Of a stretch of DNA of 64,000 nucleotides, positions 5,649 through 33,217 are shown piece by piece. This DNA is from Psilocybe cubensis. Its lineage: Eukaryota. A program made the position numbers and the translations under genes. The notes under the pieces were generated by a model. It made no database searches. It had not been told where the DNA came from and worked only from the letters and a program-made list of their open reading frames with translations. The stretch lies in the NCBI GenBank assembly GCA_017499595.2, contig CM039008.1, forward strand, positions 2,790,001-2,854,000, read 5' to 3'. Within the stretch, counting starts at the first letter, position 1; every line of letters starts with the position of its first letter.

Positions 5649-5874
5649 AAACGTTGAAATTGAGGCTAAAAAATACTACAATTGGGCCTATATAGCACAT
5701 GACTGCCGGTTATAAATCCACATGACCGGTAAGGCCAGTTATCTATGACGTATCCATGGGGACTTCTGGGTGGAATGGCTATAAGATTGCATCATCGATA
5801 TTGCAGACTTACGGTCAGCCTCAAAAACTTTTTATCTAAACTACCTTTTGTTTTTAATTTTCTATTTCTTTAAC

Positions 5875-8800
5875 ATGTCATTTACTTCTTTTCCTCTTAG
5901 GACACCTTTTTGCTCTTCTCAAGCAGATGAAGAGGCACACCGTTCAAATGTTTGTGCTTCAATGCGAATAGCATCAATGGCAAATTCTCCTCCTAGACGA
6001 TCACCTCTGCCATCTGCTTCTTCTTTGCACTTAGTACAAATCATTCCCCCTCAACACATTCCCCCTCAACGTTCACGACAAATTGTAAATACAAATGCAA
6101 TTGCTGGCCCTTCATTATTACCCAAAATACGTCAGCCACAGCAATTTTCCCAATTTGGAACTGTCACTGTCACACCTGCTCCTTCACGTTTGAATGAGTC
6201 AGCCGTGAATTTGAGTCCTTCTGCTTCTTCACGTCATCAACGGATAGCTGGTTTGGAAAATCGTACTACTTCTCAAGGTATGCAAATCTTTTTCTACTAT
6301 TTATTATGACTTCTAATTCTATCTATTATACAAGCCCGTCGAGTTGCCAGTCGGCTGTTCCATCATCAGCAAGAACATACTATTCCTGCACCGGGCAACA
6401 ATGTTGTTGAGGATGATTTAGATGGGAGTGAAAATAGCAATATTGAAGGAGAAGATGAAGATGTGTGTGTTATTTTTTCTTTCTTATTCAATCTTTTAAT
6501 AAGCATAGTCTGTGGTAAACTTTTTTTAGCAGCTCAAAAGCCCTATGTCGACACTATACAAAAGCATGATCTTGGTCTAATAAATATTAAATGTTCCTCC
6601 TGTGGTGCTCTTTATTGGGAATCTAAGAGATTGTCAAACAGCTCAAAACGGAGACCTTGCTTTTCTACTTGCTATTCTAATGGCAAGGTTGTGCTTCCTC
6701 TTCTCCAACCACCGCCTGAACCCTTGCTCTATCTCCTTATGTCAACCGATTCTTCTGCATCTAAGTTTTGGGAAACTATTTGGAATTAAAACCGAGCTTT
6801 TTCTTTTACCTCACTTGGAGTACATGAAGATCATTCTGTGAATAGCAAAGGCCGTGGACCGCCAGTGTTTTGCATATCCGGCGAGCTTCATCATAATTCT
6901 GGTGCATTAAAACCTCCTAATGGAAAATTGCCTCGATACTCTCAGCTATATATCTATGATCCTTCTATGGCTCTTGATTTCCGAGTTTGCCAAAATCTTG
7001 ACCTCAATCAACAAGTTATGAATCAATTACAACAAATGTTATTACAACATCACTGCTATGTGCCAATTTACAAACATGCGCACAAAATTCTACAGCAATA
7101 TGATCATGATGATAACATTAATGTTCAACTCCGACTTACACCAGAGCTTGACCGTCGTTGCTACAATCTCTCTACCACAAATGAAGTTGCTGTTATTCTG
7201 CCTGGATCTGGAGCTTTTCAACCTCGCAATATTGTTCTTCAACTTTGGGATGGTCCGCTTCATTGGATTAGTGATTTGCATCCTGCTTATTGTCCACTTT
7301 AGTATCCTTTGCTTTTTCCTTATGGAGAAAATGGCTGGTATCCTGAAATGAAACTAATAGAATCTGAGAAACAGTTAGAATGTCGTATCAATGCTAGAAA
7401 TCATTGACAAAACCAGCGGCAAGACCACGCTATACAAGATATTGAAGCTTCTGATGATCATCCTGACAATTCTCTTTTGCATGCACTATTGTGAAGAAGA
7501 ACTAGGTGCTCTGCTTTATGGTGGTTGTCTTTTTGCACGCTATGTTGTTGATATGTTTGCCTCTATTGATCAACAGCAATTGTCTTGGATATTCAATAAT
7601 CAGGGACAATTCCGTCTTGCACGTCTTAATAATCTTCAAGATGCTAATATGTCGGATCCGGATAATCTTGATCTGAATAAAGTCGGCCAACAATATTTTC
7701 TTCCATCTTTTTATATTGGTGGTCCTCGGAATATGGATCAATGCTATCAGGATGCTATGGCAGTCTCCCGTCACTTTTGCCAGCCTGACCTTTTCATTAC
7801 AATGACAACAAATCCATGCTGGATTGAAATTGAAAGAGAACTTCTTTCTGGCCAAACAGCATATGATTGCCTGACCTGGTTGCAAAAGTTTTCTGTCTCA
7901 AAATCAAGGCCTTGCTAGATGTCAGGGTACATATTGGTGCCACTCCTATCCGTCATCGTTATCTGTTACGGTCCCACGCTGTCATGCCTTGTTCTATCTT
8001 TGTGTTTGGTCCTACATCTATCGTTCTCCTGTTTCATCTATTGATAGTTGTCATATGTCAAGTACTCTGGTCCGGGAAGTAGTTACTCCAGTCTCCATGT
8101 ATATGACCCCAGCTTCAATATCAACTTGGTCTTTGGGAATTCTTCTCTCTTGACTTAAGTCGATTCCTAACACTAGACTATATTACCAAACATGGTATTT
8201 TTGGCCATTCTGTCGCCTATGTTTATATTATTGAATTCCAAAAAGAGGTCTTCCTCATATTCATCTTATTGATTTTTTTAAAAGAACCTTTCAAACTTCT
8301 TGCGGCTGAGGATATTGACTCCTGCATATTAGCAAAGTGGCCAGATGCGTTGACTCAACCACAATTATTTGACGTCGTGAAAAATTGTATGGTCCATGGT
8401 CCATGCGGTCCTGCAAATCCCAAAGCTCCCTGCATGATCAACGGCAAGTGTTCAAAAGGTTTTCCTAAGCCATTTTGTGCTTCAACAACTGTTGATGGCA
8501 AAGGATATCCTTCTTATTGTCGTTCTGATGATGGAAGAGCATATGATATTGGTGGTTGGATGGTCAACAATCGATTTATTGTGCCATTTAATGCCTTTCT
8601 TTCATTAACATTTGACTGTCATGTCAACATGAAATGCCCCGCCAGCTTTGCAACAATGAAATATGCTTTCAAATATCTTCACAAAGGTCCAGATTGTGGC
8701 ACTCTTGAGGTTAAACAAAAGGATGAAATCAAGCAATGGATTGATGGTTGTTATATTTCTGCTCCTGATGCAGCTTGGCGCATATTTCAATTTCCAACCC

Positions 8801-11040
8801 ATTGAGTGGTTCCAAATATTGTACGATTGCAGGTATGACATTCTCAATATATATATTATCATTTGCTAATGTTTAACATAGGTACATTTAGAAAATGACC
8901 ATACTGTTGTTTTTGATCCCAAAGATGATATTGACAATATTGTTGAGCATGCTACCAGTAAAAAAACTATTCTTACCGCCTTTTTTGCTGCTAATGCAAT
9001 TACTGGACCTCTTAGTGAAGAAGCTTGAAGACATACTTATCAAGAATTTCCGCAGTTTTTCACATTCAACAAAAACTCCTGGTCATGGAGTCTTCAAAAG
9101 CGTGATTTTGCGCTTGGAAGAATGTATTTCATCAAGCCAACAAGCGGAGAGGTCTTTTATCTTTGAACACTTCTTACTGCAGCCAAAGGACCTACTAGCT
9201 TTGAAGATATTTGCCATGTTCCTGGAATGAATAATGGTCAGCCATATCCCACTTTTCATGCTGCTTGCTTGGCTCGCGGTTTGCTCCAGGATGATGGTGA
9301 ATGGCGTATATGTCTGCAAGAAGCTTCTGCTATGCATACAGGCTCACGTCTCCATTCACTTTTTGCAACAATACTTTTATTCTGCGAAATGTTGCAACCA
9401 AACTTGCTTTGGGCAGAGTTTAGGACCCATATTTGCAATGATCTTGAGCATTGCCTTCTTACTATTGGAATCTGTGATCATACTAAGGAGGCTATATACG
9501 ACTATGGTCTTTATCTTTTGAATGGACTTCTTCTGAAATCTGGTCAATCACTTGAAACTTGGCCTTCAATGCCCCACTCAATTATGGACTGGTCATCTCT
9601 TACTATCAATCCTCTTATTGCGGAATAGCTTAATTATAATCCGGAGGTTCTACAAGCATATCTTGAATCCCGTTTACCCTTGCTTAATGAAGAGCAGCAC
9701 CTAATCTACGATACTATTCTTGCCTCAGTTAATGCTGCAAATGGGAATCTTTTCTTTCTCAATGGTCCTGGTAGCACTGGCAAAACATTTGTGTACAACA
9801 CTCTATGTGCAAAATTATGCAGTAATGGCAAGATTGTTCTATGTGTTTCTTCTTCTGGAATATCCGCTCTTCTTATTGCTGGTGGACAAACTGCTCACTC
9901 AATGTTCCGCATACCCATTGATATTGCCGAAAATATGGTCTGTACTATTTCTAAAAGAACCAACCGTGCTAAGCTTTTGAAATCAGCACACACCATTATT
10001 TGGGATGAAATTGGAGCTCAACATTGTTATGCTATTGAGGCCGTTGACCACACACTTTGGAATCTTTGAATGTGTGATATGCCATTTGGAGGAATCACAA
10101 CTGTTTTTGGTGGCGACTTTCTACAAACACTTCCTGTTGTGCCAAAAGGATCCCAAGAGGACATTGTTGATGCTACATTACAGCGATCATATCTTTGACA
10201 ACATATTAAAATTCTCAAGCTTACACAAAACATGCGTCTGACGGGTGCCGATGCAGATACACATCTATTTGCACAGTGGCTTCTTGATATTGGACATGGT
10301 CGCAATATGCATTCAGACTCTAAAGTTCAAATTCCAACTTATATGCATGTTGCTGATATTGACGGCCTTATCACTGCTATATATCCAGGCATTAATTCAA
10401 TTCCTTTGCCAGGTCCTGAATATTTTCTCTGCCGAATGATTCTAGCACCCCGCAATGTTGAGGTTTGCTCGATTAACAATGATATTCTGAATATGATGGA
10501 TGGAGAAGTACGTTAGTACCTTAGCGCTAATCAAATAATTATAGATCCAAACCATAATCCAGAAGATGAACTTGAGGCAGCGGTTCCGCCAGAAGTCTTA
10601 AGGGCTATTAATGACCCAGGCTCACCTCTAGGAGAGCTTAACCTAAAAATTGGCTGCCCTGTTATTCTTCTTCGAAATCTAAATCCTCAGCAAGGACTAT
10701 GTAACGGCACACATCTTATTATAACCCGCATGGCTGCAAGAGTTTTAGAGGCAAGAATTCTTGGTGGCAAACATGATGGTGACTTGGTTATAATTCCTCG
10801 AATTTCTGTGCCATCTTCAAGCAGCTCTTATCATTTTATGTGATTTCAATTTCCTCTCCGCCTTGCATTTGCACTTAGCATCAACAAGTCCCAAGGACAG
10901 TCCGTTAGGGATTTATTTGCATTCTTTAGTCTTTTCACATGGTCAGCTTTATGTTTCTCTTTCTTGGGTTACGTCTTCCAGAAATATTAAGATTTTACTT
11001 GGAGAAAATGATGGTAATTTAACCACAAATGTTGTATATG
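5875..11040 (+). pseudogene. Helitron RepHel (HUH Rep + PIF1 helicase) with stops and frameshifts
   Basis: N-terminal CSSCGALYW...CYSNGKV. Rep motifs DLFITMTTNP, IEFQK.GLPHIH (frameshifted) and KYAFKYLHKG. Helicase motifs [56 protein letters not shown]. Many in-frame stops. Start approximate. Confidence 0.92.
7920..8172. mobile_element. Solo LTR (253 bp) nested in Helitron Rep
   Basis: TGTCAGG...CCTAACA termini (TG..CA, short inverted repeat). 5-bp TSD CTAGA (7915-7919 and 8173-8177). Excision restores the Rep frame KIKALLDYITKHGIFGH. Confidence 0.88.
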
Positions 11041-11149
11041 TATTCTTGACCATTTATTTGGCATATTTAGATTTTTTAATTGAGATGATATTGCTTTTGG
11101 TGACAAAGAGTCTGAGCCAAAACTTTACTTTATTGAGGCGTTGGCATAT

Positions 11150-11998
11150 TCTAATTTTGGTTTATTGTCTATTCAACTTCCTAACCTTTTTGGCTAGATT
11201 GTTCAGATTCCTGCAAAAACAGGCTCACTTCCTTATAATTTAAAGGACTATGACTTTTGTGGCGATTTAAAATGGGTAATGTTTGGTTCTTCTTTATATA
11301 AATAGTGCCTTTTCATCTTATGATTTTCAATTATAGATTATTCCTTTGGGAGACACTAATGTTTCCTTCAACTTTTGTCCATATGTGCATATTGTTGGCC
11401 AGGCTTCAAATTGCAATCAATCATCATGGCAAATTTGCATGGAGCCTTATGTAGGAGCTATTATCAAGACAGAGCCCAACACTAAAGCTCCTCCTTGCCC
11501 CCGTGCTAATTTCTATTGTGAGCATCCAGAGCCCCCCCAAGGAAATACAATATGGAAGAAAAAACCGGTTCCTTACAATAATTGGTTTGTTGCTGTCCAT
11601 GGATTTCTTACCGATGTCATAATCAAGGATGATGACACAAATGAGATTGAATTCTTCAAGGTTATTGTTGATTCAATTGAATTTCTTGGAGGTGAACCTT
11701 CCATTGCAAACACGTCAATTGTGGCAAATAAACTTGATGGTATGCATATTTTACTACTATTTTTCTATTTAATTTTTGCTAATTTAAAATTGCTTTTATA
11801 GCTGCTTTACCGTCACCACGTTCAAAAGGATTTGGAAAAATGAAGGGCAAGGCACCAGCTACACCTTTGAAGCATGAATGATAAGAAGATGGAAATGACA
11901 ATCAAGCTACTCCAACACCCGTGAGACCTAAAACTCGAGCAAAGCAACAGGCTCCTGCAGTAGCTCAGGGCTCTCTAACTGCCGATCCAGTCTCTTAA
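11150..11998 (+). pseudogene. Second, intron-containing Helitron-borne ORF (possible OB-fold/ssDNA-binding accessory protein), decayed
   Basis: ORF 11346-11801 (CPYVHIVGQA...PVPYNNWFVAVHGFLTDV...VDSIEFLG) is flanked by GT-AG introns and followed by a basic/Pro tail with an internal stop. It lies between the helicase and the 3' hairpin. Start approximate; the fold assignment is inference. Confidence 0.5.
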
Positions 11999-13342
11999 TT
12001 TTCCTTATGATATTTTGAACATTTATTTCCGCCTTTCTATGGAATATTCTGCATCATATATATATACAAATAAATATGCACTGTTATTGTCATTCCCGTC
12101 TTTCCGTGCGGAGCACGGGTACACTGCTAGTCTAATTTTCAAAGTGAAATCTGAAATATTTTTATACAAATCTGTTAAGATAGTTCTATTTTGACCACTT
12201 ATGAATTATTCAATCATGCTGCTCTTCAAGCTTCAAGCCTCAAATTTCAAGTGTCAACTGACATCCCACTGATCAGGCCTTCAAGCGGCGGGGGCATCCA
12301 CTCGGGCTACAATCAAAGTAGTTCGCCCAGAATCTCGCCCCACTCAGCGAAGACCTACCGAAGGTTATGTAATGTATTTCACAGACATCACGTGTAGTCC
12401 TATAACCAACTACGGCTCGCTCGCCTTGCGCAGTCCTTGCGCTCGTCCACGGTACACCCTCTACTGTACATGTTTTGTCTCAACCAACCTGCGTCAGTAT
12501 CTCTATGCGTACCTGTGATTCACTAAAAGCCTACGCATTTCTATCTCTTGGTTCCATCTCCTCCTTCCCTCACTCCCCGCAGTCACGCATAGTATGGAAC
12601 TCGACAGTCCTCTCCCATCGCTTCCTTCTATTTCATGTTACTGGATTCTAAGCTGAAACGTGCCGCTTCTGTTTTCTCTGTGCCATGGCGTGGGCGTCAG
12701 AGAGCTCACCACTCACCAGGTTTCAATATAAATACCCCGACCGTCTCACGCAGCTTGCCAGTGCTCAGTCAGAATATTGGGTGAACGGTCTGTTTTCTAG
12801 TTTTTTTTACTCTTCGGGTCCCATATCGGAGGTGGGAGAAACTCATATCTATTCTCTCATGAATAAAAGGGTTCATGACAACATCAAAGGTGAGTCCCTG
12901 CATGGCAGCAACACGGGAACATTCTCAAGATGGGTATTGCTAGGGTGGAGCTAAGGTGATATCATGGCAAGATGACGATGCATTGAACGACCAGACCTTG
13001 TCTCCTCATAGATTTCCTTGTTCCTCCCGTCAGGATCAAACAAAACCCAGGGTAGTAGGCTACGGAGAATCACACAAACCGTATAGATTATTCTGATTCG
13101 GATTCTCATTTATCTCAGTGCAGTCGACGTGTGTCAATGCATAGTAGGTGGCGTGTAGAGTTGGAATATTTTATGAATCATTTTCCTCTACTGGTCGTTC
13201 ACATCGGTAACGATGCCCTCCGATGCTTCTACCAATCAGCCAGCATGACAAGTTTCCTTATGTAACTGACATGTTCAAATATAACAAACACATATATAAA
13301 CCGCACTTTGCCATTATCGTTCTTTCCCACTCACGAACAACG

Positions 13343-16228
13343 ATGAAGAATCCTCAACTCGTATCGTCCGTTGTGTTTGCAGTTATTGGATGGCTGGTCT
13401 ACAAGCTCATCAATATTGGTCGACGAGACAAGACCCTTCCACCTGGGCCACCGACAGCGCCTTTGGTGGGAAATGCTCATTTGCTTCCGTCGAAGTTTGC
13501 GTTTTTAAAGTATGTCTTTATTGCTGATATCCGTTTTGCGCACTAATGACCTTTTTCGCAAGATTCTCTGAGTGGGGAAGGCAATATGGTGGCATCTTTT
13601 CGGTACATGCACTATATCTACACAATTCTTGATAAGGCTCACCTTACTACTGCAGATTAAACTGGCAAATGCAACGATGATCGTGGTCTCCGACATGAAA
13701 GTGGTGAAAGAGCTTCTTGACGACCGCAGCAGTGAAACGTCTTCGCGTCCATTTTCTTTTGCTGTTCATTCCATCTCCAAAGGATATTTTGCATTAACAT
13801 CCTCAGGTAAGTATCAATCAAAAAAGCCATTGGGCTTTGCTTAATCGTATCAATATTACATATAACCCTTTGATTTTAGATAATCCGTTGTGGAAGGCGA
13901 GTCGCAAATCCATTCAACCTTTTCTAAGCGCAGGAGCCATTCAATCGCATGTCTCCATCTCTGACAAGGAAACTACCCAACTTTTATATGACATCCTGAA
14001 CACTCCCGAAGTAAGTCCTCTGTTCAAACGTGATGATACACGATTGACCCATGTAATAACTTGCAGAGTTTATGTGCCCACGTTTTTCGATGCACCTTTT
14101 CCTCTGCCGCCTCTCTGGCTTTTGGACGACGCGTTCTCCGTCATGATAGCTCAGAAGCTATACTCTTCGAACAGTATCTCCGCAATTTTGTCAAGACGGT
14201 TTCTCCTGAGTCTGCCCCCGTTGACCTGATACCCATCCTCAGATACATCCCAGAATCAATAGCTCCATGGGGAAAGGTCTGGCGTGAGACTCGCCAACAA
14301 CAACAGTCGATATACTATTTTTTCTTCGAGCACACTTTGCGTGAGGTCAACGCAGGAAATAAGAAGGGTACTATTATCGAAGCAATAGTAAAAAACCAAG
14401 AGGAGTTAGGCTTAACTCAGGATGCAATCGCGTATGTAGGAATTTTACATCATATGGCTTTCATGCTGATACGATCTCTCCAGATATATAGGAGGAATGT
14501 TACTCGACGCTGGGTCAGAGACGTCGGCCACAACAATACAATCGCTGATTTTGTCTCTCCTAAAATTTCCCGCGTGCTTGAAAAAGGCACAAGAGGAGAT
14601 TGATGAGCTCATCGGTGACAGCAGGTTGCCTATTTCAACTGACATCGATGAGTTACCTTATGTTCAAGCTGTTATAAAAGAGGTAATATATTCCTCTTCA
14701 CATCATACACCGTAAATTGACACATCTTATCAGGGTCACCGCCTGAGACCTGCTGTGCCATGTGGGATTCCGCACGCTGCTCTCAACGATTGTCATGTAA
14801 GCCACTGTTTCTCAACTCGCGATTTTATTCAATAATATTTGAGTCTAGTACCGAGGTTACACGATACCAAAAGGATCACCAATACTCATTAACATTTGTG
14901 AGTCACAGGATATATGATGTAGATGAAGAACATTATTCAATTTTCTCGATAGGGGGGATACTTCACGATCCTGGTGAATCATGTATTGTTTTCCTGGTCA
15001 TTGGCATTTTACGAATAGGTTCTCACACTGCGGGCGCCGACCGCTGTAAGTTAAACATACAGCAGAAAACTTACATGTCTTATGTAAGTTTCGCTGTAAG
15101 TTCGACATACAGCACATGTGTATGAAAAACAAACACTCGGCAAAGACATATTGTGTTTGGTGGCTGTATGCCGACCAAACACAATTGCTGTAAGTAGACT
15201 GTAAATAGAATAAACATCTGAATTACACAAATTCTGTTTGTCCGGTGTTAGTAAAACATACACATTTTCTTTAAGTAATACAAACAGCACTTACTGTAAG
15301 TAAAAATTACACACAAAGAACATAATTTGTGTATGTTATACTTACACAAGTTTTTCAATTCATTTAATGGTGTAAGTCTGACATACACAAATTGTGTTCT
15401 TCATGTGTAATTTTTACTTACAGAAAGTGCTGTTTGTATGACTTACAGAAAATGTGTACGTTTTACTAACACCGGACAAAGACAATTTGTGTAATTTAGG
15501 TGTTTATTCTACTTAAAGGTTACTTACAGTAATTGTGTTTGGTTGGCATATAGCCACCAAACACAATATGTCTTTGTCAAATGTTTGTTTTCCTGACACA
15601 TGTGCTGTAAGTTGAACATACACCTAAACTTACATAAGACATGTAAGTTTACTGCTGTATGTTTAACTTACAGCGGTCGGCGCCCGCAGTGTCAGAGCTT
15701 TTTGACCGTCCCGATGAATTTCGGCCTGAACGGTACCTTGAAACACCTGATGGAACAATTCCGGGTCTGAAAAAAGACTTCAATATACGGCTGAATCTAC
15801 CCTTTGGCAGTGGAAAGGTAGGCACCCAAGAATATCCTAATATATCTTCCACAATGCGCTACTTATTCACTACAGAGGCTATGTCCCGGTATGAATTTCT
15901 CGAACATTTTCTTAGTATGTCGCTTCTGTTATATATACAGTTTTTGGTACTAAATACGGATTGGTATTATAGAATCTTGCGGTTATGCGCCTGCTTTGGG
16001 CATTTGATTTTACGCCATACGATGACTTGACTACAAACCACGACACATGGGATATAGAAAAGGAGTACTCAGAGGTAATAATCATCATATTGTCATGTTA
16101 TACCAACGTTTAAAGTTTAACCTGTGTCCTAGGGAATTACATTAACACCTAAGAATTTGAGGTGCAAAATTACCCCGCGAAACGAGAAGAGGGCCAGAAT
16201 TATCCAGAACAGTTATAAAGAGGCTTGA
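13343..16228 (+). CDS. Cytochrome P450 (CYP64-like fungal group), copy 1; reading frame intact if the MITE-bearing intron is spliced
   Basis: TM anchor plus LPPGPP, I-helix DAGSETS, ExxR (KEGHR), PERY, heme motif FGSGKRLCPG. Exons join in frame to TGA 16226-16228. Confidence 0.9.
15026..15691. mobile_element. CACTG-ended foldback MITE inside a P450 intron
   Basis: CACTGCGGGCGCCGACCGCTGTAAGTTAAACATAC...GTATGTTTAACTTACAGCGGTCGGCGCCCGCAGTG. Imperfect ~320-bp arms. 3-bp TSD TCA. Confidence 0.93.
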
Positions 16229-16461: not shown

Positions 16462-19400
16462 TTAAGCTCCCTTTGCAAACCCTTTGGCACCCCGATTCTC
16501 AACGCCTGGTAATTTGAATTTCTTTGTGGGGCCGACGTCGAGTTTCTCAAAGCTGTTAATGTCGACAAGGTTGTTGATCGTGGTTTGAATCGGAAGTAAG
16601 GTCTCCAACATGGCACTGTAGCCGTGAACGGCGACCTGGTCTGGAGTCTCCTTTGTTACCGAGACGTATGCGTTGATGGCCGCAGCCATTTCGTCCTGAA
16701 CTTGCTTGAGCTCGGAAATTCCTTGTTTAAATTCGTAGTAACCAAAGCACGGAGCCGCTCTTTCGGTATTGCTGATAGGCTGTGATACAAGGAACTTTGC
16801 GAGAGGAGCCAATACACCCATCATAATACCATACATATTCTTGAGAACCAGGTTCTGACGGTTGCTGTATTTCTCGACATGCCAGAGCGTTTCGATAGTA
16901 CGAAGGAGGAAGCAGTATGCAGCGTCAAACGTCAACGAGACCTGACAAAATGAAAATGATGTCAGCGATGTGGTACGTGGATATTGAGGCTGAAAAGTAC
17001 CTGGTAGAGTCTGCGATCAATTTTGAAGTAGTCTGGAGTAACAGGATTCTCGACGACAGGGTAAACCTCCCATTGAGCAGGCCCGAATCGCAAATCCATA
17101 AAGACGTCGTAGTGGTCTTTCTCAAGCTTGTCTGGATCGTCATAGGGACCCGGGGAACCCTCTCCTTGCACAACAATTATGCTGAGAGCTTCCAATGCAG
17201 TATCAAGATCCGTCACAACGACCGAGCCGCCTGCATCGCGCTCTTTGGCTTGATATCCAAGGCCCGGGGCAAACTGGAATGCGGCGGTCTCAGGGTAGAA
17301 TAGCTTATGGTTCTGACTACTCAAATACTTCAACCCTATTTAATGTTAAAGAATTGACGTCAAGCAGGATTACACGATGCATAGTTTATGACAACACACC
17401 TATTTTAATGGCATCATAGAATTGACCGAGTGTCTCGTACTCGTCCGATTCCGGTGGGGTATCAGTTTTCTCTCGTTTTTCCACCTATCGGTTATAATAA
17501 TAAGGTACTAAGAACACATTATTACTAATTATAAACTCACATCGATGAAAGTCTGGATGTTAGCCTTAGATGCCTTACGGAGCTGGAGCCATAATTTTGG
17601 AACGCGGCCAGGCATGAACGTGGGATAGGAGGGTATATATCGTGGGTCGTAAAGCTTTGGATTGCCTCCAACGGCTAGAAGAACATTTCCAGCCAGGCTT
17701 AAATGAAGCATTTCCTCAGCAACAACGCCTAGATAAACATGATTGATCAGTATTGTTTATGCACGATCGATGTATTATTTTACCTCGAATAGCACCGATA
17801 ACAGGGTCGTAGTAGCGAGGATCATTCGCGTACTCATCAGGAATCTTAACGCTGTACATTCCAAATAGATAAAGGGGAATAGTGGCCAGCTCAATGGCCA
17901 TAGCTGTCTGCAGATGGGTACGGAGGCTTTCGATGGTCGTGATGGGTTGGTTTTTACTGTCAGGCTGTGGAAGTTTCAATGGGCCTCCAACGATACCACT
18001 CTTTGCAGGAGTGTGTTGCGCAGGTAACGTTTCTTTTCCCGGCCGATGAATTATGCCGCGCTGAGTTTCAACGAATATGGGTTCAGGGCCGAATGATGGA
18101 CGCTGGACAATGAAACCAAGCTTGTGCCAGTTTTTAGCCATATCAGTATTGGCAAAAAGAGGTTGGTCTGAATAGACGTCTAGAAGATGGGTTACTTGAG
18201 TTAACGATAATATGTGGTGAAAAATAAAGGATATTACCCGTGTAGTTTTGATGAAGACCACGCTCCCAGGGTTTCCTGTCGTTTAATTTCTTTGCGATAT
18301 TGGCTGGGGTCACCGACTGGGAAACTATGTTGTAATCTTCTTCAGTAACGACAGTATCCGGTCGAGCAGATGGCCACCTAATAAAATATGAGTTTATCAA
18401 AGGGCGGTAAAGGGAGAGGAAGAAACGCACCAATAAGATCGACACATGTAGAAGTCACTCTGCCACGGTAAGGAAAGAAAACGAGTCAGATCCCCTGCAT
18501 TAACTTCTGGCTTAATAGTAAACGGTGTGTTAAAGTCATAAATCTTGTCGTCCTCCGCATTCCAGGACATTTCTATACCAGGATACAAAGGAGCGCCAAT
18601 AGTAGCCTCCAAAGCAGCCTTCGTGAGCGCTGAAGGTTGCTCCTCGACGGGAATATCATCGAAATTCTGATACGTTTTAACAGCGGTCGTATCGAAGCTC
18701 CCTTCACTCCATTGTATCAAGCGATCATATTGCAACTCGGTAACGGATGCGAACGTGGAGGGATCACCAGCAGTTGTTCGACCTATATGTGATCATTTTG
18801 TTATTACAACGTCGACATGAGCTGATATATAACATTACCTCCATCACCCGAAAGCCATGGCATAAAGTATGGGTATGCCTGCCCTGCGCGGGCTGAGTCG
18901 TACTTCTTGTTGGTCTCAGGAAGTCGCATCCGCATAATTACACCTTTGCGAATAGCTTCATTTACTTTGCTCTTGTCAGAGAGGGAATGTTGCCATCCTT
19001 CATCGAAGAAATTCCCTGCAGAATTCGGGCCTGACAAATATGGAATAAGTCCAATGGGAGCGAAAGATTTCTTTGATATAATGCGCACCGTGCCCGCCAT
19101 TTGCTTGTCCGTTTACCCAGGAGAGAAGAGGTGGTCGTTGGAGAAGGGGCCATATGTGTTTGTACCAACTTACATCCCCAACGTTATAAGAGTCACCTTG
19201 AGCAGCGCGTTTCTTGCGCTCGTACACTTCTTCCATCAAATCATAAAGAGATGTTGGTGCATATATGCCGTTTGCAAACTTTGGGGTTGTGCCGATGACG
19301 CGAGCCTTCCCTTGAGCATCGACCCTTTTGAAAATACTGAGAATAATTCAAACTGCGAAACGATATAACTTACGACTTTCCCGACGCCGTGGATGTTATA

Positions 19401-20219
19401 GTTGCTGTAATCCAGCCATCGCATGTGTCGTCGATCCAGTCAGGTGAGTCGAAATCAGTCATGATATATGGGTAAGGATCGTCTTCCTTAGCGATAGACT
19501 TGGATAGACCGCGGCCAGCAAGGACGACAAGACGGCCCTGATCATCTGTTCTGGCCTCTCCAAGGTAGACATCTGTGGGCTCGGTTTTGGACCCGTAGAA
19601 CTTTCCCGCTAATGGGACAGATTTGGCGTTACAGCCACTAACACTTTGGATGCCACTGTCGACAATCAGTTTATCACGCTGGTCTGGGGGAAGCTAGCAA
19701 CATCGAAAACTAAGCAGACGAACATAAAGAATGCTCTTCAAACCTACGTCTGCTTGAACACTCGGGTTGCGCAGGGTTGTATAGCCTGGCTTAAAGTGAC
19801 CATCCTGGGTCTTTCCTGGATGTTGATATTAGAAAGTGAATAAAGAAGATGAAATAACTTGGCATAATACCCATGAATGTGTACCAAGACGCCTTTTTGT
19901 TCATCACTTGGATCTTCCATGCTATATCCCAACCGCTCTTTTTATTTATTTCCAGCACTTTACCATCATTTGCGACCGCGTAAATTCTGAACCTTGCAGC
20001 CTAGTAAACGTATGAGTGCCTGAAACATGATATAATTTGAAGAATTACCTGTCGTTTTACCGCACCGTTGATGTCTTTGAATCCATTGTTAGGTTCTGGA
20101 AAATACCCAGGAACCTCGGGCCCATAGAACCAACCGTCATCGAGGGTTGAGTTCCCGACACGAGCAAATCCGATAGGAGGATAGATTCGTAGACTTGCCC
20201 AGCCAGATGGAAGAGCCAT
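16462..20219 (-). CDS. LodA/GoxA-family CTQ-dependent amino-acid oxidase fused to a C-terminal VioB/RebD-type ferritin-like domain (~1050 aa, ~12 introns)
   Basis: LodA motifs IYPPIGFARVGNS, KRQAARFRIY, WKIQVMNKKASWY, LRNP, LGEARTDDQGRLVVLAGRG, WIDDTCDG, MPWLSGD, PLYPGIEMSW, GDLTRFLSLPWQSDFYMCRSYWWPSARPD, NWHKLGFIV. Ferritin-like motifs LQTAMAIELATIPLYL, VAEEMLHLSLAGNVLLAVGG, TLGQFY, IIVVQGEGS, EKDHY. Exons join in frame, and the domain junction lies within one exon (ORF 17716-18261). Confidence 0.9.
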
Positions 20220-21074
20220 AGGTTGACGTTTAAATTTTGCTTAGAGTGGTTAAATTACAGGGCGATTTTGAAAGATAAGACCGTAACGTTAACCCTGACG
20301 CACGGCTGTCTTGGCAGAATGGTGAGGTGTAGAACGACAAGTAAAATGAAACACCAGCATATTTGGCCAAGTTTTGCACGAGAAATATACTCTCCGAATT
20401 CTCACGTTAATTTTATCAACCAATGGGACGACGCCGCTGTATAGTCATCGGACGGTGTCTGATTATCGTCAAATAGCTTCCTGTTACCATTAGGCTGCAG
20501 GATGATGATCTCCTAAAATCTTGAAATTAAACTTTGCTTTTAATCGCTATATAATGGGAATTTTTACATGGGACCCGAGTGCTGTTTTCAGTCCTATCTT
20601 CCGCATTCAGTCGCAATGACGTACGTTCTATAAATAGCACCACCCCCGGTGTGTGTTCCGCTGCCTCTGGGTGTGCACCCGCACTAGCGAGGGTGTGTGT
20701 AAAGTCAGTATTCCGTACGCCAGCGGTATATCCGTTACGATACGGGGTAAATTACCACCAATTCTTAATGCATGAAAGTTGATCGACGCTCAGAATACGT
20801 CATATGTCTACGAACACGAAGGTGCTATAATAACCGCTTAAGCGGAGAATTCTCCAAGTTGATTGGGAGGCGCTTTATTGAGGCCCCGGATACAGCGCCT
20901 TAGTATCCGCATCCGATGTAGCACAACAAATTTGTAGAATTTCGGTACCATTGTGTCAAGTCCAACTTTGAATTCCTAAAGATATAAAAGCAGACGACAT
21001 TCAACTTATATTTCATCAACTTGCACCTCATCATCAGCTACTTGAATAACCCACTTAAACCTCTACTTCTAACA
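20220..21074. promoter_or_regulatory. Divergent (possibly shared) promoter region between the oxidase fusion and OYE
   Basis: Head-to-head ATGs separated by 855 bp. TATAAAA at 20983-20989 upstream of the OYE. Confidence 0.5.
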
Positions 21075-22410
21075 ATGTCGAACTCGAAGCTCTTTCAACC
21101 AATTACCGTGGGAAACGCGAAACTTGAGCATAGAGTTGTACTTGCACCGCTCTCTCGCTTCCGTTGGACCCAGCGAGAACATTTACCTGTCTTCCCTATC
21201 GTCAATACATACTATGAGCAGCGTTCCCGCCGACCTGGTACCCTCTTGATCACGGAGGCAACACCTGTTGCACGTCACGCTGGAGGATATTATAACGTCC
21301 CTGGGATATGGAACCAGGATCAGATCAACGGTTGGAAATCGGTTCGTCTCTCACCATTCCATGCTTTTTAAACATTCTTAAAAGACTCATGTGTGACTGA
21401 GCAGATAACCGACACAGTCCACAAAAACGGATCGTTTATCTTTATGCAGATATGGGCTCATGGACGCGCGGCGGACCCCAAGGTGTTGGCGGAAGATGGT
21501 TTTGACTTCGTAGCGCCCTCTCCCATTCCCATCACCGGACGCGCTACTCCAAGAGAGCTGACCATACAAGAGATAGAGAAATACCCGGGACTCTTTGCGA
21601 AAGCTGCGAAGAATGCCGTTGAGGCTGGCTTTGATGGCGTAGAGATTCACAACGCCAACGGGTACCTTCTCGACCAATTTGTCCAGGACGTCAGTAATCA
21701 TCGTACGGACAAGTATGGAGGAAATATAGAAAATAGAAACAGACTTTCTCTTATGGTTGTCGACGCTGTCGTCGATGCTATTGGTCCTGAAAAGGTTGGA
21801 ATTCGCATAAGCCCTTGGATGGTTTACCAAAGTGTGTAACAATTATGATTTATCTGCATAATTCATTGCCATAATTCTGATTAAATGCTACTCATAGACA
21901 TGCATATGATAGATCCGGTGCCCCAATTCACGCATCTGGTTGAATCTATCGTCAATAAACATCCGGATATGGCTTACCTCCATGTTGTGGAACCAGACAA
22001 AGGGGCACCTGAGACGGAATCCAATGACTTTCTACGCGATATTTGGGCTCCACGACCATTTATAAGCTGTGGAGACTACACCCGCGAGACGGCTATCAAA
22101 CGTGCAGACGAGACAGGAAATTTGATTGCCTTTGGAAGGTACTTTATCTCAAATGTAAGTTGCCCTCATTACCCAGACAATATACAACAATGACTCACTG
22201 TTATTGACTCGTGTGTAGCCCGATCTTCCCACTAGGATTGAACATAACATACCTTTTAACGAATATGATCGTAAGACCTTTTATGGACCGAAAGGACACC
22301 TCCTCGGAGCGGAAGCGGGATACATAGATTACCCATTCGCAGACGAGAAGCATGAGAAAAAGAGGGGAAATAATACGGGAGAAGATTGGGATGTCATTTA
22401 TAGAGCGTAA
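21075..22410 (+). CDS. Old Yellow Enzyme (NADH:flavin oxidoreductase / ene-reductase)
   Basis: MSNSKLFQPITVG, RVVLAPLSRFR, LLITEAT, FMQIWAHGR, AGFDGVEIHNANGYLLDQF, RTDKYGG, IAFGRYFISNPDLP, GYIDYPF. Three introns; stop TAA 22408-22410. Confidence 0.93.
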
Positions 22411-25797: not shown

Positions 25798-27641
25798 ATG
25801 GCAAATACTGTAGCGTATTTTATATTTATGGGAGTATGTTGGGCGATCTTCAAACTGTTACGCATTGGACGCCGTGAAGATACGCTCCCTCCGGGTCCAC
25901 CGACTGTCCCAATCCTTGGAAACGCCCACCTTCTTCCAACGAAGTATCCATTTGTTAAGTAAGCATTATTTTTTTGAATATTTACGGTGGCTACTCAACG
26001 TTTCTTTAGACTGGCGGAGTGGGGTAAAGACTACGATGGAATTTTCTCGGTGAGAAAGATTTTGATTCAACGCGACAGGGAATCGGTTATAATTGTGATA
26101 CTTGCGGATAGCTCAAAGTCGCAAATGGGACCGCTGAGTTCGCCTCCCGCCCAGCGTTTTCAGGTATGGATGCAGTAACTGGTGGCCGATATTTTTTAAC
26201 CGCGTCTCCTGGTACGTATATTGAGTTGCATGGATCTCAAAAGATACTTAAGCCCAGTGGATAGATAGTCACCTTTGGAAAACTAGTAGACAGGCCATAA
26301 AATCTCTGTTATCTCCTCAAGCAGTCCAGAAATACTATCCCCTTGTAGACGCAGAAACAACCCAACTAATGTATGACATTTTACACAAACCAGAGGTAAG
26401 GACATTCCCGCAGCTTTTTTGGTTGTATTATCGTCATCTTATACAATGAACAAGGCGTTCTACGACCACATCACCCGCCTGACTCTCTCATTCATGACCT
26501 CTATCGTCTTTGGTCAGCGCACTCCAAGACATGATTCTCCTGTGGCAGTCGCTTTCAGGAAGTACATCGAACAGTTTTTCAGAGTGTTCTCCCCTGAAGC
26601 ACCTCCCGTGGATTTTATTCCTGCTCTTATGTACGTTCCAGAGAGGTGGGCGCCTTACAAAAAACTCTGGAGAGAATCCAGAATTATGCAGCGGAATCTG
26701 TATTTTGGATTGCTAATTGAGGCTGAGAAGCGTAAAAATGAAGGTTTGAATGAGTGTTTTGTAACAAGCCTGTTGGATCAACAGATTGAGCTTGGATTGG
26801 ATCGTGAAACTATTGTGTATGTCTATTTCTCAGTATCAACCCCTGTTCACATACTGAATCCTCATGTCCCTTCTGTTTGTATTATGAAGTTACATTGGCG
26901 GCGCACTATTGGATGGGGGAGCGGAGACGACTTCATCATTTCTTCAAAATTTCGTTCTCTGCCTCGTCAAGTTTCCAGCAGTATTACGGAAGGCGCAACT
27001 TGAGGTCGATACTGTCGTTGGAGAAAGGATTCCAGATTACAATGATATCAAATCCTTGCCTTATGTTCAAGCTATCATAAAAGAGGTTTGGAGTACGAGT
27101 CTTCACGTTTATCCACGTTCACTTAATCCTGCATTTGTAGACACATCGCTTACTTCCCATCGCACCTACAGCCATGCCACATGCATCGCCCAACGATTGT
27201 GAGGTACGTGATTGATACTTCATTCGAACGAGGAATTGGGTTTATTTGAATAGTATCGAGGATTTGTAATCCCGAAGTATACCCCTGTTCTCTTCAATGT
27301 GTGTGAGTAATGAACGCTACTAGTAGTGTCACTATTTTAACGTCATTTCGCGTTTAATTAGTTGGTATATGTCGCGACCCAAGTAAAGGTTCAATTTTAT
27401 AATTTTCGATTTGCACTGATGCACTTGCACGGTCTCAGATCTATATGAACGCCCTGATGAATTTTGGCCTGAGCGATATATCTTGTCACCCGATGGGACT
27501 AAACCCGGACTTCCTGAGGATATGAGTCACGTTCGCACATCAGTTCCCTTTGGAAGTGGCAAGGTAAGCTTGAAGTTATGGCTGATATGAGGGTCTCTGT
27601 ATTAAAGGTGACACAAGAGACTATGTCCTGTGCATGTCTGA
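25798..27641 (+). pseudogene. Cytochrome P450 copy 2, internally deleted and C-terminally truncated
   Basis: Same intron layout as its paralogs. About 18 codons (IVVVSD...LLDDRS) are missing in exon 3 (LKVANGT|AEFASRP). The heme exon reads RLCPVHV-stop and the last exons are absent. Confidence 0.85.
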
Positions 27642-28665: not shown

Positions 28666-30911
28666 ATGGCAAATATGATATCGCTTGCGGTAGCATTTGT
28701 AGCTGCCTGGGTTATCTACAAGCTGCTATGCTTCGGGCGTCGAGAAGATACGCTCCCTCCTGGTCCACCGACCATACCAATCCTCGGCAATGCTCATTTA
28801 CTTCCTAGGAAATTCCCATTTATTAAGTACGCATTACTTCTTGGCTTCTTGCAACAGCAGTTTTCTGACATAAAGATGTTTAGGTTGGCAGAAATGGCTA
28901 AAGACTATGACGGGATATTTTCGGTGTGTAGATCTCATTGTAAATGCTGAATTCTCTGATTATTATGTTCTAAAAGCTTAAAGTCACAAACGGGACAATC
29001 GTCGTCGTGTCGAATATGAAAACTTGCAAGGAACTCTTGGATGACCGTAGTGCCGAGTTTTCCTCGCGTCCCGCGTTTGCGGGTATGGACATTGTGACCG
29101 GTGGCAGATACTTCGCCACGGCTCCCGCACGTGAGTCTCTCTCAGCTGCGCTAGAGACACGCTTTCTCATTGGCGAACAGACAGCTTTTTCTGGAAGCTA
29201 TGTAAAAAAGTTATTCATCCTCTAGTGTCTCCGCAAGGAGTCCAGATGTACCACCCTCTCGCTGACGAAGAAACAACACAATTATTATACGATATCTTGC
29301 ATAATCCAGAGGTATTCTATACACTTGCGCCAGTATAAATCATGTCACTGACCTCTTAGTTAGTGTTTCTACGATCACATTACCCGCTCAACTCTCTCGT
29401 TCATAACATCCGTGGTTTTTGGACAAAGAACGCCAAAGTATAATTCTCCTGTTGCAGTATCCTTTATGAAATATATGGAGGTATTCAAGAAGGTATTTTC
29501 CCCCGAGTCAGCTCCGGTTGACTTCATTCCTGCCCTCTTGTACGTGCCCGAGCGTTGGGCACCATGGAAAAAAATGTGGAAGGAGACACGAGAATTGCAG
29601 CAGTCTCTCTACTTTAACATGTTTAAAGACGTAATCCAGGGCCAAAGGAATGGGATGTATGGCGACTGTTTTGTTGCAAAAGTTATAGAACAACAGGAAG
29701 AACTTGGTTTGGATCAAGAAACTATGGCGTATGTCCACCCCCATAACCAAGTTATAACCAATACTCAATTTTACTCTGAATTTGAAGATACATCGGTGGC
29801 ATTCTGTTGGATGGTGGAGCAGAAACAACTGCGTCATTGATACAGAATCTTGTCCTCTGTGTCACTAAATTTCCCGCTGCTTTACAGAAAGCTCAAATGG
29901 AGATTGATAGCGTGGTTGGAGAAAGACTTCCAGATTTCCGTGACATCAAAGATCTGCCATATGTTCAAGCTCTCATCAGAGAGGTAAATTATTTCATTTA
30001 CATTTATATACCCAATTGCATTAAGCATTCATTCCCCTGATCCTAGACCCATCGTCTCCTTCCTACTGCCCCAACTGCAGTGCCGCATGCGTCAGTTAAT
30101 GACTGTGAGGTAAGAACTTTACTTTTGTATTTTTAATGAAGCACTCAGTAATGATATGAATAGTATCGAGGGTATCTAATACCCAAAAACACCCCCGTCC
30201 TCTTCAACATCTGTGAGTATAATTCATAATTGAGGTCAAATCCTCAGCACTGACATTAATGTCAACTCCCATCAAGATGGTATTTGCCGTGACCCCGGTA
30301 ACTGAAGCTTCCTGTACAGAATATGCACTCTCTACTAATTTGATCATAATAATATAGAACTTTATGACCGACCAGACGAATTCTGGCCAGACAGATACCT
30401 ATTGTCTCCTGATGGAACGAGACCCGGACTACCTGAGAGTATGAGTGGCGTACGCGCAACCCTACCTTTTGGTAGCGGAAAGGTCAGTGATATCGCAGTT
30501 ACAATAATCTTTCTTGTATTAATGTTGACATTCGAAATTCAAGAGGATTTGCCCCGGGATGCATCTTGCTAATGCAAATACTGTTAGTCTTATCCTTTGA
30601 ATATGCTCTTCAATGCTCTGAATAGTAGTGTATACTCTAGAACCTGGCCATCATGCGACTTCTCTGGGCATTTGACTTTGCAGCTGCTGATGGTTCTCTC
30701 TCGATGACTCCACAATTGAATATAGAAAAGGAACATTGCGATGTGAGTCTTCACCTATATTACAATTTAATCAATCTACAATTCAGATTCAAACCACCTT
30801 CAGGGAGTAACATTGACCCCAAAACCATTTCAATGCAAAATTACACCACGCAGCGAGATGAAAAAAGAGATCATCGAGACAGCGTACAGGCAACTCGTAC
30901 CTCTTGCCTAA
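28666..30911 (+). CDS. Cytochrome P450 copy 3, apparently intact
   Basis: [52 protein letters not shown]. Stop TAA 30909-30911. Confidence 0.88.
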
Positions 30912-31421: not shown

Positions 31422-32777
31422 TTACTGTAGTTGACCGCCAAAACTATCTCTGAGAGATTTGTACGATTTTTCAATGATGGATGCTTTCCTTGTGCTGCGT
31501 GGCGTAATTTTGCATTGGAATGGTTTTGCGCTCAACGTAATACCCTGTTTATTGTTTACATGAACTAACTCGGGGGCACTCCTTATCAAAGTGGACACTC
31601 ACGTCAACAAATTCATTCTCAATATCCCATTTTGGCGTCGAAGGGGCGGGACTATCAATAGAAACGAAGTCGAATGCCCAGAGAAGACGCATGACAGCCA
31701 GATTCTAAAGTAAACAAAAGTTTGAAAGTCAAAATAGCAAGTAGTCGAGCATATGATTTACAATGTTGGTATTAGCAAGATGCATTCCAGGACATAACCT
31801 CTTAACAACTTGTTAATATAAAAAACGCTATTGTTATTGCGATTAAACTGACCTTTCCACTTCCGAAGGGCAGTGTTGTACGAGTGTAACCCGTACCATC
31901 GGGTAGTCCCGACATAGTACCATCTGGCGATAGCAGATACCTCTCAGGCCAGAATTCCTCAGGTCGTTCATAGAGCTCTAAGTCACGATCTCGTCAGTAC
32001 AAACTGAAAGGCATAACAAGAAGGTTAAATTGTACTTGGATCCCGACATATCCCAACTGGATGACAGTTACATTAAGTTAACATTGGCGATATAACTCAG
32101 TTTCAAGCACTATGACTCACAGACATTGATGAGAATGGGTGTTTTTCTGGGGATGATATATTCTCGATACTATTCAGATTATTGTGAGCACGATGTGTCT
32201 TGGTAATAGAGAAAAGGGTCAGGATATCACCTCCGAGTCATCAACAGAAGCGTGCGGGATGGAGGTCGGCGCAGTGGGCAGGAAGCGATGAGTCTGATAG
32301 TGACAAAGGTGAATTCAACGGAGTTCAGATACATTCCAAGTAAGTAACGCACCTCTTTGATGATGGCTTGAACATAGGGCATGGATTTTATATCGTTGGA
32401 ATCTGGAAGTCTGTCTCCAACGGCATTATCCACCTCAGCTTGGGCTTTCTTTAATACCGATGGGTATTTCACCAGACATAGAACGAGATTCTGCAAAAAT
32501 GAGGCAGTAGTCTCTGCCCCTCCATCTAAAAGGACCCCGCAGATGTACCTGTGCACAATGAAATGAAACAAAGTTGGGCACAGACAAATGATTGAACTTG
32601 TTCGGACATACACAATGGTATCACGTTCCAGTGCTAGATCTTCTTGCTGTTCCAACATCTTCGCAGCGAAGCACTCGTCGATCATTCCCGCTCTCCTCCG
32701 CCTCTCAACCTCGCGAAATAGTTTGAAATAAAGAGCACACTGCATAGCTTGTGTCTTCTTCCACATTTTCTTCCACG
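31422..32777 (-). pseudogene. Inverted, 5'-truncated cytochrome P450 copy 4 (close paralog of copy 5)
   Basis: Homology starts abruptly at WKKMWKKTQAMQ, then continues through DGGAETT, KETHR, PERY and FGSGKRLCPG to a stop at 31422. The N-terminal half is missing. Confidence 0.87.
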
Positions 32778-33217
32778 CTAAATTCCAACCCGTAGACAGA
32801 CGCGTGACGTATGCCCTCGGCGTGGCCAACAAATTTTCGTTCTTACTTTCGCCCATACGCAACATCGACAATCAGCGTACGAGAGTATTGGTTTCCATCA
32901 CAAGTCGTAAACAGGAAGCCTATTGTGTTGAGAATGGGAATGACGGATAGCGCCGCCATGTATGTACGTTATGAAAATCAGCCAATTTTTTCAATTGTAC
33001 ACTATTACAGCATTTCCCCCTGAAGTCCCTCGAAACGCATCTATTTCGTGTCAACGCCTAGCGACATCCGTTGAACCGTGAGTAATAAAATCGTTTGCGG
33101 TGTAATTATAAGAAGGCTAAGAAGAGCCATTGGCATGCTCAGCAATTCCCCTGCGTTCAAGCATTTGACTCAGCTGTAGGCAGTGCGATTGCGAGCAACA
33201 TTCGTTCTAATTTCCCG

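Follow-up and report, generated by a model that had tools for sequence, protein, structure and literature searches.

The stretch of DNA analysed here (the window, 64,000 nucleotides of Psilocybe cubensis contig CM039008.1, assembly GCA_017499595.2, positions 2,790,001 to 2,854,000 of the forward strand) carries a gene for a 1030-residue protein in which an oxidase of the LodA/GoxA family is joined to a ferritin-like domain. As judged from its sequence and from spliced contigs, the gene is an intact, expressed member of that family with a complete predicted site for cysteine tryptophylquinone (CTQ), yet there is no gene within the window that resembles LodB, the protein dependent on flavin adenine dinucleotide (FAD) on which bacterial members rely for CTQ maturation. 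The exon model was guided by P0001, a 1030-residue UniRef entry from P. cubensis named 'Iminophenyl-pyruvate dimer synthase domain-containing protein', and gives the following parts.

16462 to 20219, minus strand: fused gene for the LodA-like CTQ oxidase and ferritin-like domain; product 1030 residues
20219-20049, 20000-19871, 19815-19748, 19693-19374, 19324-19089, 19030-18839, 18782-18431, minus strand: exons 1 to 7 of the fused gene
18377-18238, 18179-17784, 17728-17541, 17484-17400, 17335-17001, 16941-16462 (stop included), minus strand: exons 8 to 13 of the fused gene
19315 to 20183, minus strand: LodA_N (PF17990), residues 13-233, exons 1 to 5 (Pfam E 5.8e-54 on P0001)
18356 to 18848, minus strand: LodA_C (PF18417), residues 370-497, exons 6 to 8 (Pfam E 1.1e-25 on P0001, 2.7e-27 on the exon)
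18374 to 18456, minus strand: predicted CTQ site (D482 at 18456-18454, C486 at 18444-18442, W491 at 18376-18374)
17784 to 18179, minus strand: junction exon 9, whose translation holds the end of LodA, the linker and the first ferritin-like helix in one frame
17091 to 17913, minus strand: ferritin-like domain (PF12902), residues 626-841 (Pfam E 9.7e-44 on P0001)
16465 to 17090, minus strand: C-terminal 189 residues, no Pfam family; conserved among fungal homologues and helical in the model of the homologue P0004 (helices 312-448)

The window has a eukaryotic pattern of short open frames with short GT..AG introns between them, and the fused gene runs from an ATG at 20219 to a stop codon at 16462-16464 through 13 exons, every intron being GT..AG. 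Its spliced product is identical to P0001 at 1010 of 1030 residues (98%, 20 differences), and P0001 matches the junction exon at 99% identity. All 12 introns are spliced out, at the predicted positions, in contigs of two sequencing runs from one study (X1 and X2); the runs are not recorded as RNA, and we take them to be RNA-derived only because their contigs lack all 12 introns. One of these contigs, of 2668 nucleotides, spans exon 13 to exon 5 and joins the LodA_C and ferritin-like parts. Exon 9 contains the last conserved LodA segment (NTDMAKNW554HKLGF...ETQRG578), a linker of about 45 residues and helix 1 of the ferritin-like domain; the alignment of bacterial LodA to the fused protein extends as far as ETQRG, and the PF12902 match begins within the exon. 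Since exon 9 is a single uninterrupted exon, the fusion is not an artefact of the gene model, and with one open frame there and spliced contigs bridging both halves, we conclude that it is real and expressed. The same evidence confirms the first-pass annotation of this DNA in placing a ferritin-like domain directly behind the oxidase. Just upstream, a spliced X1 contig runs past 20221 with 93 letters unlike the window, and in the DNA runs X3 and X4 loose ends occur at 20499 and small insertions and deletions at 20284-20584, between the oxidase gene and its upstream neighbour; the differences over 20221-20606 point to strain or haplotype variation or to an upstream 5' exon.

Both oxidase domains of P0001 pass the Pfam gathering score (LodA_N, 183.8 bits against a cutoff of 26.3; LodA_C, 90.5 bits against 25), separate exon pieces of the window match LodA_N (E 1e-10, 8e-10 and 2e-20), and the only relatives of the LodA_C part in the PDB are GoxA and LodA. 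The CTQ residues of LodA are C516 and W581 (PMC4417212). In the LodA chain 3weu, they occur in PWQAD512FFNC516 and, after a LodA-specific insertion, in YW580W581PP; GoxA has PWQSD678AASC682 ... SW696W697. The window protein has PWQSD482FYMC486RSYW490W491P, in which W491 is the second tryptophan of YWWP and the codon of W490 is split by intron 7. D482, C486 and W491 (LodA: D512, C516 and W581; GoxA: D678, C682 and W697) are conserved in 59 of 59 aligned sequences, comprising five fungal proteins and 54 LodA-like open reading frames (ORFs) from the retrieved loci. Two further tryptophans, W527 (conserved in 59 of 59) and W554 (56 of 59), were considered as the CTQ tryptophan and rejected because the LodA alignment puts W581 on the WWP motif.

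The differences between the window product and P0001 were scored on the columns without variation among P0002, P0006 and P0010, three other fungal homologues of full length, P0001 itself being left out so that there is no self-bias. Over the whole protein, 5 of the 20 fall at invariant columns, which make up 54% of all columns (binomial P = 0.008), and in the LodA half the count is 1 of 10 against 58% (binomial P = 0.003). Judged by this pattern of substitution, the LodA part is under constraint within Psilocybe.

The ferritin-like domain of P0001 also passes its gathering score (150.3 bits against a cutoff of 22.3) and covers profile positions 1-219 of 221; in the window protein, the domain contains E633, E674-M-L-H677 (17714-17703) and E831-K-D-H834, and with them two ExxH motifs. 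Its sole relative in the PDB is 3hl1, an uncharacterised ferritin-like protein (E 1.2e-10; 2.6e-11) with which it has the EMLH motif in common (QEMLH in 3hl1). An AlphaFold model of P0004, a homologue that is 76% identical, is of moderate confidence (mean predicted local distance difference test score 63, predicted template modelling score 0.70), and Foldseek aligns it to 3hl1 (E 2.2e-6, template modelling score 0.61) and then, weakly, to Dps and ferritins (E about 1). The window domain thus has a ferritin-like helical-bundle fold in so far as the homologue's model represents it. It probably binds a di-metal (iron) centre. A Pfam search with exon 13 matched no family.

PF12902 proteins elsewhere pair with hydrogen peroxide (H2O2)-forming oxidases, as RebD, StaD and VioB do, and by analogy we infer that the fused domain consumes or disposes of the oxidase's H2O2, oxidatively processes its aldehyde or imine product, or both. 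RebD is also said, from work of Howard-Jones and Walsh in 2005, to have catalase activity. A 1079-residue protein annotated as VioB (L085) has PF12902 at residues 666-906 (E 3e-33) and is encoded after an FAD oxidase in a cluster of indolocarbazole type; in that chemistry an FAD tryptophan oxidase makes an imine, and a haem-containing chromopyrrolic acid synthase (RebD/StaD) joins two such imines (PMC10851217). A ferritin-like (PF12902) gene of Ruegeria overlaps the end of a gene for a glucose-methanol-choline oxidoreductase, whereas the partner in a Streptomyces example is a CDGSH iron–sulfur gene and not an oxidase. The module is also fused to non-oxidase partners, as seen in a 909-residue protein of a Rhizobium leguminosarum plasmid (L084, 2273-5002, plus strand) with BNR/YCF48-like repeats, an FlgD Ig-like domain and a C-terminal PF12902 (E 3.8e-51). 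The suggestion of the first-pass annotation that the domain is an H2O2 sink fits the pattern in which PF12902, PF14518 and catalase-like domains are attached to LodA-like oxidases, but is indistinguishable here from a further catalytic step on the product of the oxidase.

No LodB-like gene lies within the 64-kb window. For the search, 120 bacterial LodB-like proteins (those of Azospirillum brasilense, L001, and Paraburkholderia caribensis, L002, with 118 relatives) were made into a profile, which was run with filters off against the 2107 six-frame window ORFs of at least 20 residues and found no LodB (best E 7.6); enriched with fungal exons, it found none in the window either (best E 10). Searches of the window by tblastn gave nothing below E 0.39 with two bacterial LodB proteins, nothing below E 1.7 with six fungal LodB exon pieces and nothing below E 0.2 with 39 fungal-type LodB-like proteins. 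As a positive control, the bacterial profile detects three LodB exon pieces in the fungal metagenome contig L010 (E 7e-6, 1e-20 and 9e-25). Among bacterial loci, 44 have LodB-like ORFs that match the profile, and overall there is a match in 47 of 79 retrieved loci. The FAD-binding segments of LodB type (GxGxxG, GE.., DAxGR and GD) are present in L010, in the contig L007 and in the Sphaerobolus protein P0382, and occur in no gene of the window. A Pfam scan of the 142 window ORFs of at least 90 residues revealed no FAD monooxygenase, an insensitive test since Pfam also missed the LodB exons of L010. That 64 kb hold no LodB-like flavoprotein had been noted in the first-pass annotation, and is borne out by the profile and by 47 tblastn queries, with the L010 control positive.

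The fused architecture is the norm in the fungal clade, as seen in Sphaerobolus stellatus (1040 residues), Mycena maculata (870 residues, truncated) and two Joint Genome Institute proteins. Of 15 metagenome contigs of fungal type (L003-L017), 13 are matched by a profile of the ferritin domain, whereas L007 and L016 stop before the domain, and the intron-free 3.4-kb contig L003 has residues 10-1029 in one frame. In DNA, relatives are only about 65% identical. Two models that consist of the ferritin-like part only, P0004 from Gymnopilus junonius and P0013 from Cyathus striatus, begin at a methionine within the LodA segment MAKNWHKLGF; because they start inside the LodA domain, both probably represent the fused gene in truncated or split form, and some of the ferritin-like genes described as 'separate' are probably split models too.

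In several relatives, LodB is a neighbour. Campillo-Brocal et al. (2015) described fungal lodA-like genes with a lodB-like gene on the opposite strand and a PF12902 gene nearby; the oppositely oriented lodB-like gene stands beside five of five fungal lodA-like genes, and rows of the supplement give Gymnopus lodA-like proteins of 574 and 607 residues and lodB-like proteins of 435 and 446 residues (PMC4417212). Among the fungal-type contigs, upstream flank is available in four (L010, L007, L004 and L008). L010, with 4.6 kb upstream, has a LodB-like gene on the opposite strand with all FAD segments in the three exon pieces found; these end at 3936 (minus strand) and the fused-gene match starts at 4621 (plus strand), about 685 bp away. 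L007 has a LodB-like gene upstream in the same arrangement, cut by the contig end, and L004 has a C-terminal LodB-like piece upstream on the same strand. LodB-like proteins and fused or ferritin-like proteins of Sphaerobolus, Cyathus and Gymnopilus junonius come from scaffolds of equal size (613814, 546046 and 11798 nucleotides, respectively), and the GES..PPE, DAxGR and GD segments are present in Sphaerobolus P0382 as in L010. Fungal LodB-like clusters with names, among 20 looked up, belong to Sphaerobolus, Cyathus, Tulasnella, Dichomitus and Gymnopilus. Other queries brought no fungal name: the best 120 matches of a bacterial LodB query of the protein collections are bacterial or unnamed, an alignment search with the N-terminal fragment gave 82 matches, none fungal by name (of 10 clusters looked up, one was a named bacterial cluster and the others were unnamed), and the ESM Atlas returned only bacterial or archaeal halogenase or FAD clusters for an L010 LodB exon.

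Bacterial relatives keep LodB as well. P0001 matches 218 plasmid records, among them Azospirillum brasilense plasmid p3 (L001), where the order is ferritin-like protein (WP_137143248.1), LodA/GoxA oxidase (WP_137143249.1) and a LodB-like 'tryptophan 7-halogenase' (WP_175426671.1). Divergent from this operon is a gene of the di-haem oxidoreductase family (L001, 5653-7602, minus strand). Among bacteria, the protein closest to P0001 is WP_082670604.1, an oxidase of Paraburkholderia caribensis (L002; 34.8% identity, E 9e-82), a 1136-residue LodA_N-LodA_C-PF14518 protein with lodB (WP_082670603.1) directly downstream. From the most similar bacterial metagenome loci, 13 were picked by hand, of which 11 had a usable ORF; two of these were dropped for contig-end cuts and nine were scanned. 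Eight of the nine are LodA_N-LodA_C-PF14518 fusions of 956-1391 residues (L020 is unfused), and a LodB-like ORF lies on the contig of seven of the eight, the eighth contig ending with the oxidase ORF. One locus, L027, has a PF14518 fusion, LodB and a separate PF12902 gene. A search of prokaryote genomes for related loci with the fungal alignment gave 30 pattern matches, none of which was confirmed. Table 3 of PMC4417212 lists LodA-like proteins fused to catalase-like PF00199 (n = 22) and to PF14518 (n = 5), and the metagenome protein P0152 and its cluster members (about 1000 residues) join LodA_N-LodA_C to a C-terminal FAD domain of LodB type (FAD_binding_3, Trp_halogenase). From these PF14518 and PF00199 fusions, the linkage to lodB and P0152, we conclude on sequence grounds that iron or haem domains have repeatedly been joined to LodA-like oxidases without displacing LodB, and that the maturase, when fused, is recognisably LodB. 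The comparison likewise leads us to read the ferritin-like domain as a conserved second module of this LodA subfamily and not as a substitute for LodB.

At the window locus, the place occupied by LodB in relatives is taken by a gene of old yellow enzyme (OYE) type, and further redox genes surround it.

20220 to 21074, no strand: divergent intergenic region from the oxidase ATG to the OYE ATG (21075), 855 bp; the place of the LodB spacer in relatives
21075 to 22410, plus strand: gene for an OYE-type NADH:flavin oxidoreductase (PF00724), at least four exons, from Pfam on ORF pieces
13211-16100, 26377-27200, 29364-29837, 32230-32871 (minus strand), 33921-34666 and 39608-39973: cytochrome P450 fragments, from Pfam
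4321-4935: short-chain dehydrogenase/reductase piece, from Pfam

The OYE gene diverges head-to-head from the oxidase gene and has the position that LodB holds in relatives. Its PF00724 pieces at 20988-22190 (plus strand; E 1.2e-19, 5.8e-45 and 2.2e-6) together cover profile positions 1-329 of 342, and two exon ORFs score 154.5 and 71.2 bits against a gathering cutoff of 27. The Pfam scan agrees with the earlier statement that this is the only neighbouring flavoenzyme. The gene has no cover in X1 or X2, which is not evidence of silence. No OYE homologue stands beside the fused gene in 14 fungal-type contigs, whose flanks are limited; no window ORF outside the fused gene has a homologue in these contigs, and Pfam on 101 of their flank ORFs gave two weak matches only. 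The oxidase and OYE genes are surrounded by at least six P450 fragments (Pfam p450 at E <= 1e-4 on six ORF pieces, with weaker matches besides) and by the short-chain dehydrogenase/reductase piece, so that the region, from its sequence, has the look of a gene neighbourhood that is rich in P450s and possibly biosynthetic. A Helitron-like element at 5785-11800 (plus strand) has matches to Helitron_like_N (E 1.9e-28), PIF1 helicase (E 4.4e-40) and the Pif1 2B domain, and with its many stop-separated frames is probably degenerate. A direct repeat of 4036 bp with 100% identity (55080-59115 and 59965-64000, spacing 4885 bp) reaches the window end; it arose by tandem duplication very recently or is an error of the assembly. 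A second repeat of 300 bp, at 51974 and 53838, is 95% identical.

How, then, might the CTQ of this oxidase be made? In LodA and GoxA, the first hydroxylation of the tryptophan is thought to be autocatalytic, copper-dependent in LodA, after which LodB or GoxB adds the second oxygen and forms the cross-link (PMC7876137; PMC11951088). We suggest that the window protein would follow the same course, with the first hydroxylation autocatalytic as in bacteria and a LodB-like FAD protein then adding the second oxygen and making the Cys-Trp link. The ancestral fungal arrangement would have been a LodB gene head-to-head with the oxidase gene; the Psilocybe-type locus would since have been rearranged, as the OYE gene in the divergent slot, the Helitron-like element and the repeats suggest, so that a LodB-like gene elsewhere in the genome would act in trans. 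An unlinked LodB is the simplest reading because the fusion co-occurs with LodB in relatives while the oxidase half is intact, expressed and constrained, and we consider it somewhat better than an even bet.

Several observations weigh against an unlinked LodB. Each LodB is argued to be specific to its own partner, and linkage is nearly universal (PMC4417212), so that an unlinked copy would be unusual. No LodB-like gene has been found for P. cubensis, either in the 64-kb window or by name in the protein collections; among the 20 fungal-type clusters looked up there after a search with a fungal LodB exon none bears a Psilocybe name, a weak point since members of the 50% clusters are not visible and a missing name is no proof of absence. 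Gymnopilus junonius is a close relative of Psilocybe, and its partial LodB-like model P0255 is without the GES..PPE, DAxGR and GD segments, either through decay or because the gene, on a contig of 11.8 kb, was poorly modelled. The contig L008 is 83% identical in DNA to L007 (981-3971) over 3.1 kb, the homology breaking off inside LodB; with 2.8 kb upstream, it keeps only the 38-residue LodB exon 1 (1835-1948, minus strand), about 840 bp upstream of a fused gene that is apparently intact (profile positions 9-1025 in 13 exon pieces, the window count). Lastly, in the linker and ferritin-like half, 4 of the 10 differences fall at invariant columns against 50% of columns invariant (P = 0.39), with no depletion.

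The observations on L008 and P0255 bear most directly on the proposal that LodB has been lost and that the tryptophylquinone is completed autocatalytically or in cis by the fused di-iron domain, much as di-haem MauG acts in the case of tryptophan tryptophylquinone (TTQ). It would account for a window with neither LodB nor a remnant of it, for an intact-looking fused gene beside a LodB cut down to exon 1, for a Gymnopilus LodB-like model that lacks FAD-binding segments and for a LodA part that is constrained in Psilocybe in a gene spliced in RNA-type contigs; moreover, the first hydroxylation is already considered autocatalytic and metal-dependent in LodA, and a metalloenzyme carries out the TTQ equivalent (PMC7876137). 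However, the ferritin-like domain co-occurs with LodB in L010, L007 (a partial contig), Sphaerobolus, Cyathus and the bacterial operons, and since LodB is intact in such relatives, the domain did not evolve to replace it. L008 and L007 may be paralogues that share one LodB, P0255 may be nothing but a faulty model on its short contig, and the literature examined holds no case of LodB-independent CTQ formation in a LodA-like protein. The in-cis maturase put forward in the first-pass annotation is therefore disfavoured as the reason for the fusion: L010, Sphaerobolus, Cyathus and Gymnopilus have both the fusion and a linked LodB-like gene, bacteria have operons of ferritin-like, lodA and lodB genes, and the PF14518 fusions also keep lodB. 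We regard loss of LodB with completion of the quinone by the protein itself as unlikely, and its more specific form, in which the Psilocybe/Gymnopilus lineage and the L008 organism would independently have lost LodB while the fusion was still selected and the di-iron domain completed the quinone in cis, as distinctly unlikely.

If the oxidase half is never matured, and has no CTQ, the protein might serve some different function, such as that of its ferritin-like half, or its gene might be decaying after loss of LodB. The normally linked LodB is indeed absent from the window, and the Helitron-like element and repeats show a rearranged region, but neither the reading frame nor any splice site is disrupted, the message is spliced and D482, C486 and W491 are retained. 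The changes, moreover, avoid conserved columns in the LodA half and not in the ferritin-like half, the opposite of what this explanation predicts, and we think it very unlikely.

Finally, replacement of LodB by a neighbouring redox gene, either the divergent OYE (alone or as flavin supplier) or a convergent P450, has no support beyond position and is highly improbable: the OYE lies exactly where relatives have LodB (855 bp, head-to-head), GoxB binds FAD loosely (PMC7876137) so that help from a flavin reductase in a reaction of LodB type is conceivable, and the window has its P450 gene fragments, but OYE is a family of reductases and not oxygenases, neither an OYE nor a P450 homologue stands beside the fused gene in the 14 fungal-type contigs with their limited flanks, and without a LodB-type protein a flavin reductase has nothing to assist.

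To our knowledge, CTQ oxidases have been characterised only from bacteria, and every one of them depends on a flavoprotein of its own, encoded by an adjacent gene. The window gene is a eukaryotic, intron-bearing and expressed member of the family, permanently fused to an iron-type domain, and its locus provides a natural experiment on whether the oxidase requires LodB and, if so, whether the two genes have to be linked. Fungal PF12902 and bacterial PF14518 at the same position in the protein point to a conserved two-step chemistry of quinone oxidase plus iron enzyme. Should an unlinked LodB copy exist, as we favour, the locus would represent ordinary gene-cluster erosion in a fungus. If the species proves to lack LodB, it would have a new way of making a protein-derived quinone; were the in-cis proposal true, this would be a flavin-independent, self-contained eukaryotic route to such a cofactor. 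A paper of 2015 (PMC4417212) already describes the family, its occurrence in Agaricomycetes and the association with PF12902 and lodB, and the fused architecture is visible in public domain annotation. Full-text searches and reviews gave no account of the fungal oxidase and ferritin-like parts as one protein, of the analogous C-terminal iron domain in the nearest bacterial relatives or of a fusion that persists where LodB is absent from the locus or eroded.

Among known systems, LodA/LodB and GoxA/GoxB of Marinomonas and Pseudoalteromonas (solved structures 3weu, 2ymw and 6byw) have the same Pfam domains and the D-x3-C ... WW motif as the window protein. Identity is low (E about 1e-22 to 1e-24), the spacing of Cys and Trp is 5 residues in the window protein compared to 65 in LodA and 15 in GoxA, and these systems have no ferritin-like domain and carry lodB or goxB directly downstream. 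The Azospirillum brasilense operon links PF12902, LodA and LodB, and matches to the first two cover 88% of P0001; however, these are three separate genes with the ferritin-like one first, identity is about 30% and LodB is present. The bacterial LodA_N-LodA_C-PF14518 (Haem_oxygenas_2, iron-containing redox enzyme) proteins are the closest to the fungal oxidase half and share the order of oxidase first and helical iron-binding domain at the C-terminus, although their iron domain is of another Pfam family (not PF12902) and lodB follows immediately downstream. The fungal 'group V' LodA-like genes of Agaricomycetes (Gymnopus luxurians, two genes; Hypholoma sublateritium; Laccaria bicolor; Postia placenta) belong to the same family, with the CTQ Cys and Trp conserved and a PF12902 gene associated (PMC4417212). 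They are described in that source as separate lodA-like and ferritin-like genes with a lodB-like gene nearby, whereas the window has one 1030-residue protein and no lodB-like gene in 64 kb. In the RebO/RebD, StaO/StaD and VioA/VioB pairs, a PF12902 protein acts on the product of an adjacent H2O2-forming amino-acid oxidase (PMC10851217), the likeness that suggests a role for the fused domain; the oxidases of these pairs are FAD enzymes, their synthases are haem proteins of about 1000 residues and their substrate is tryptophan, whereas the window oxidase is a predicted quinoprotein.

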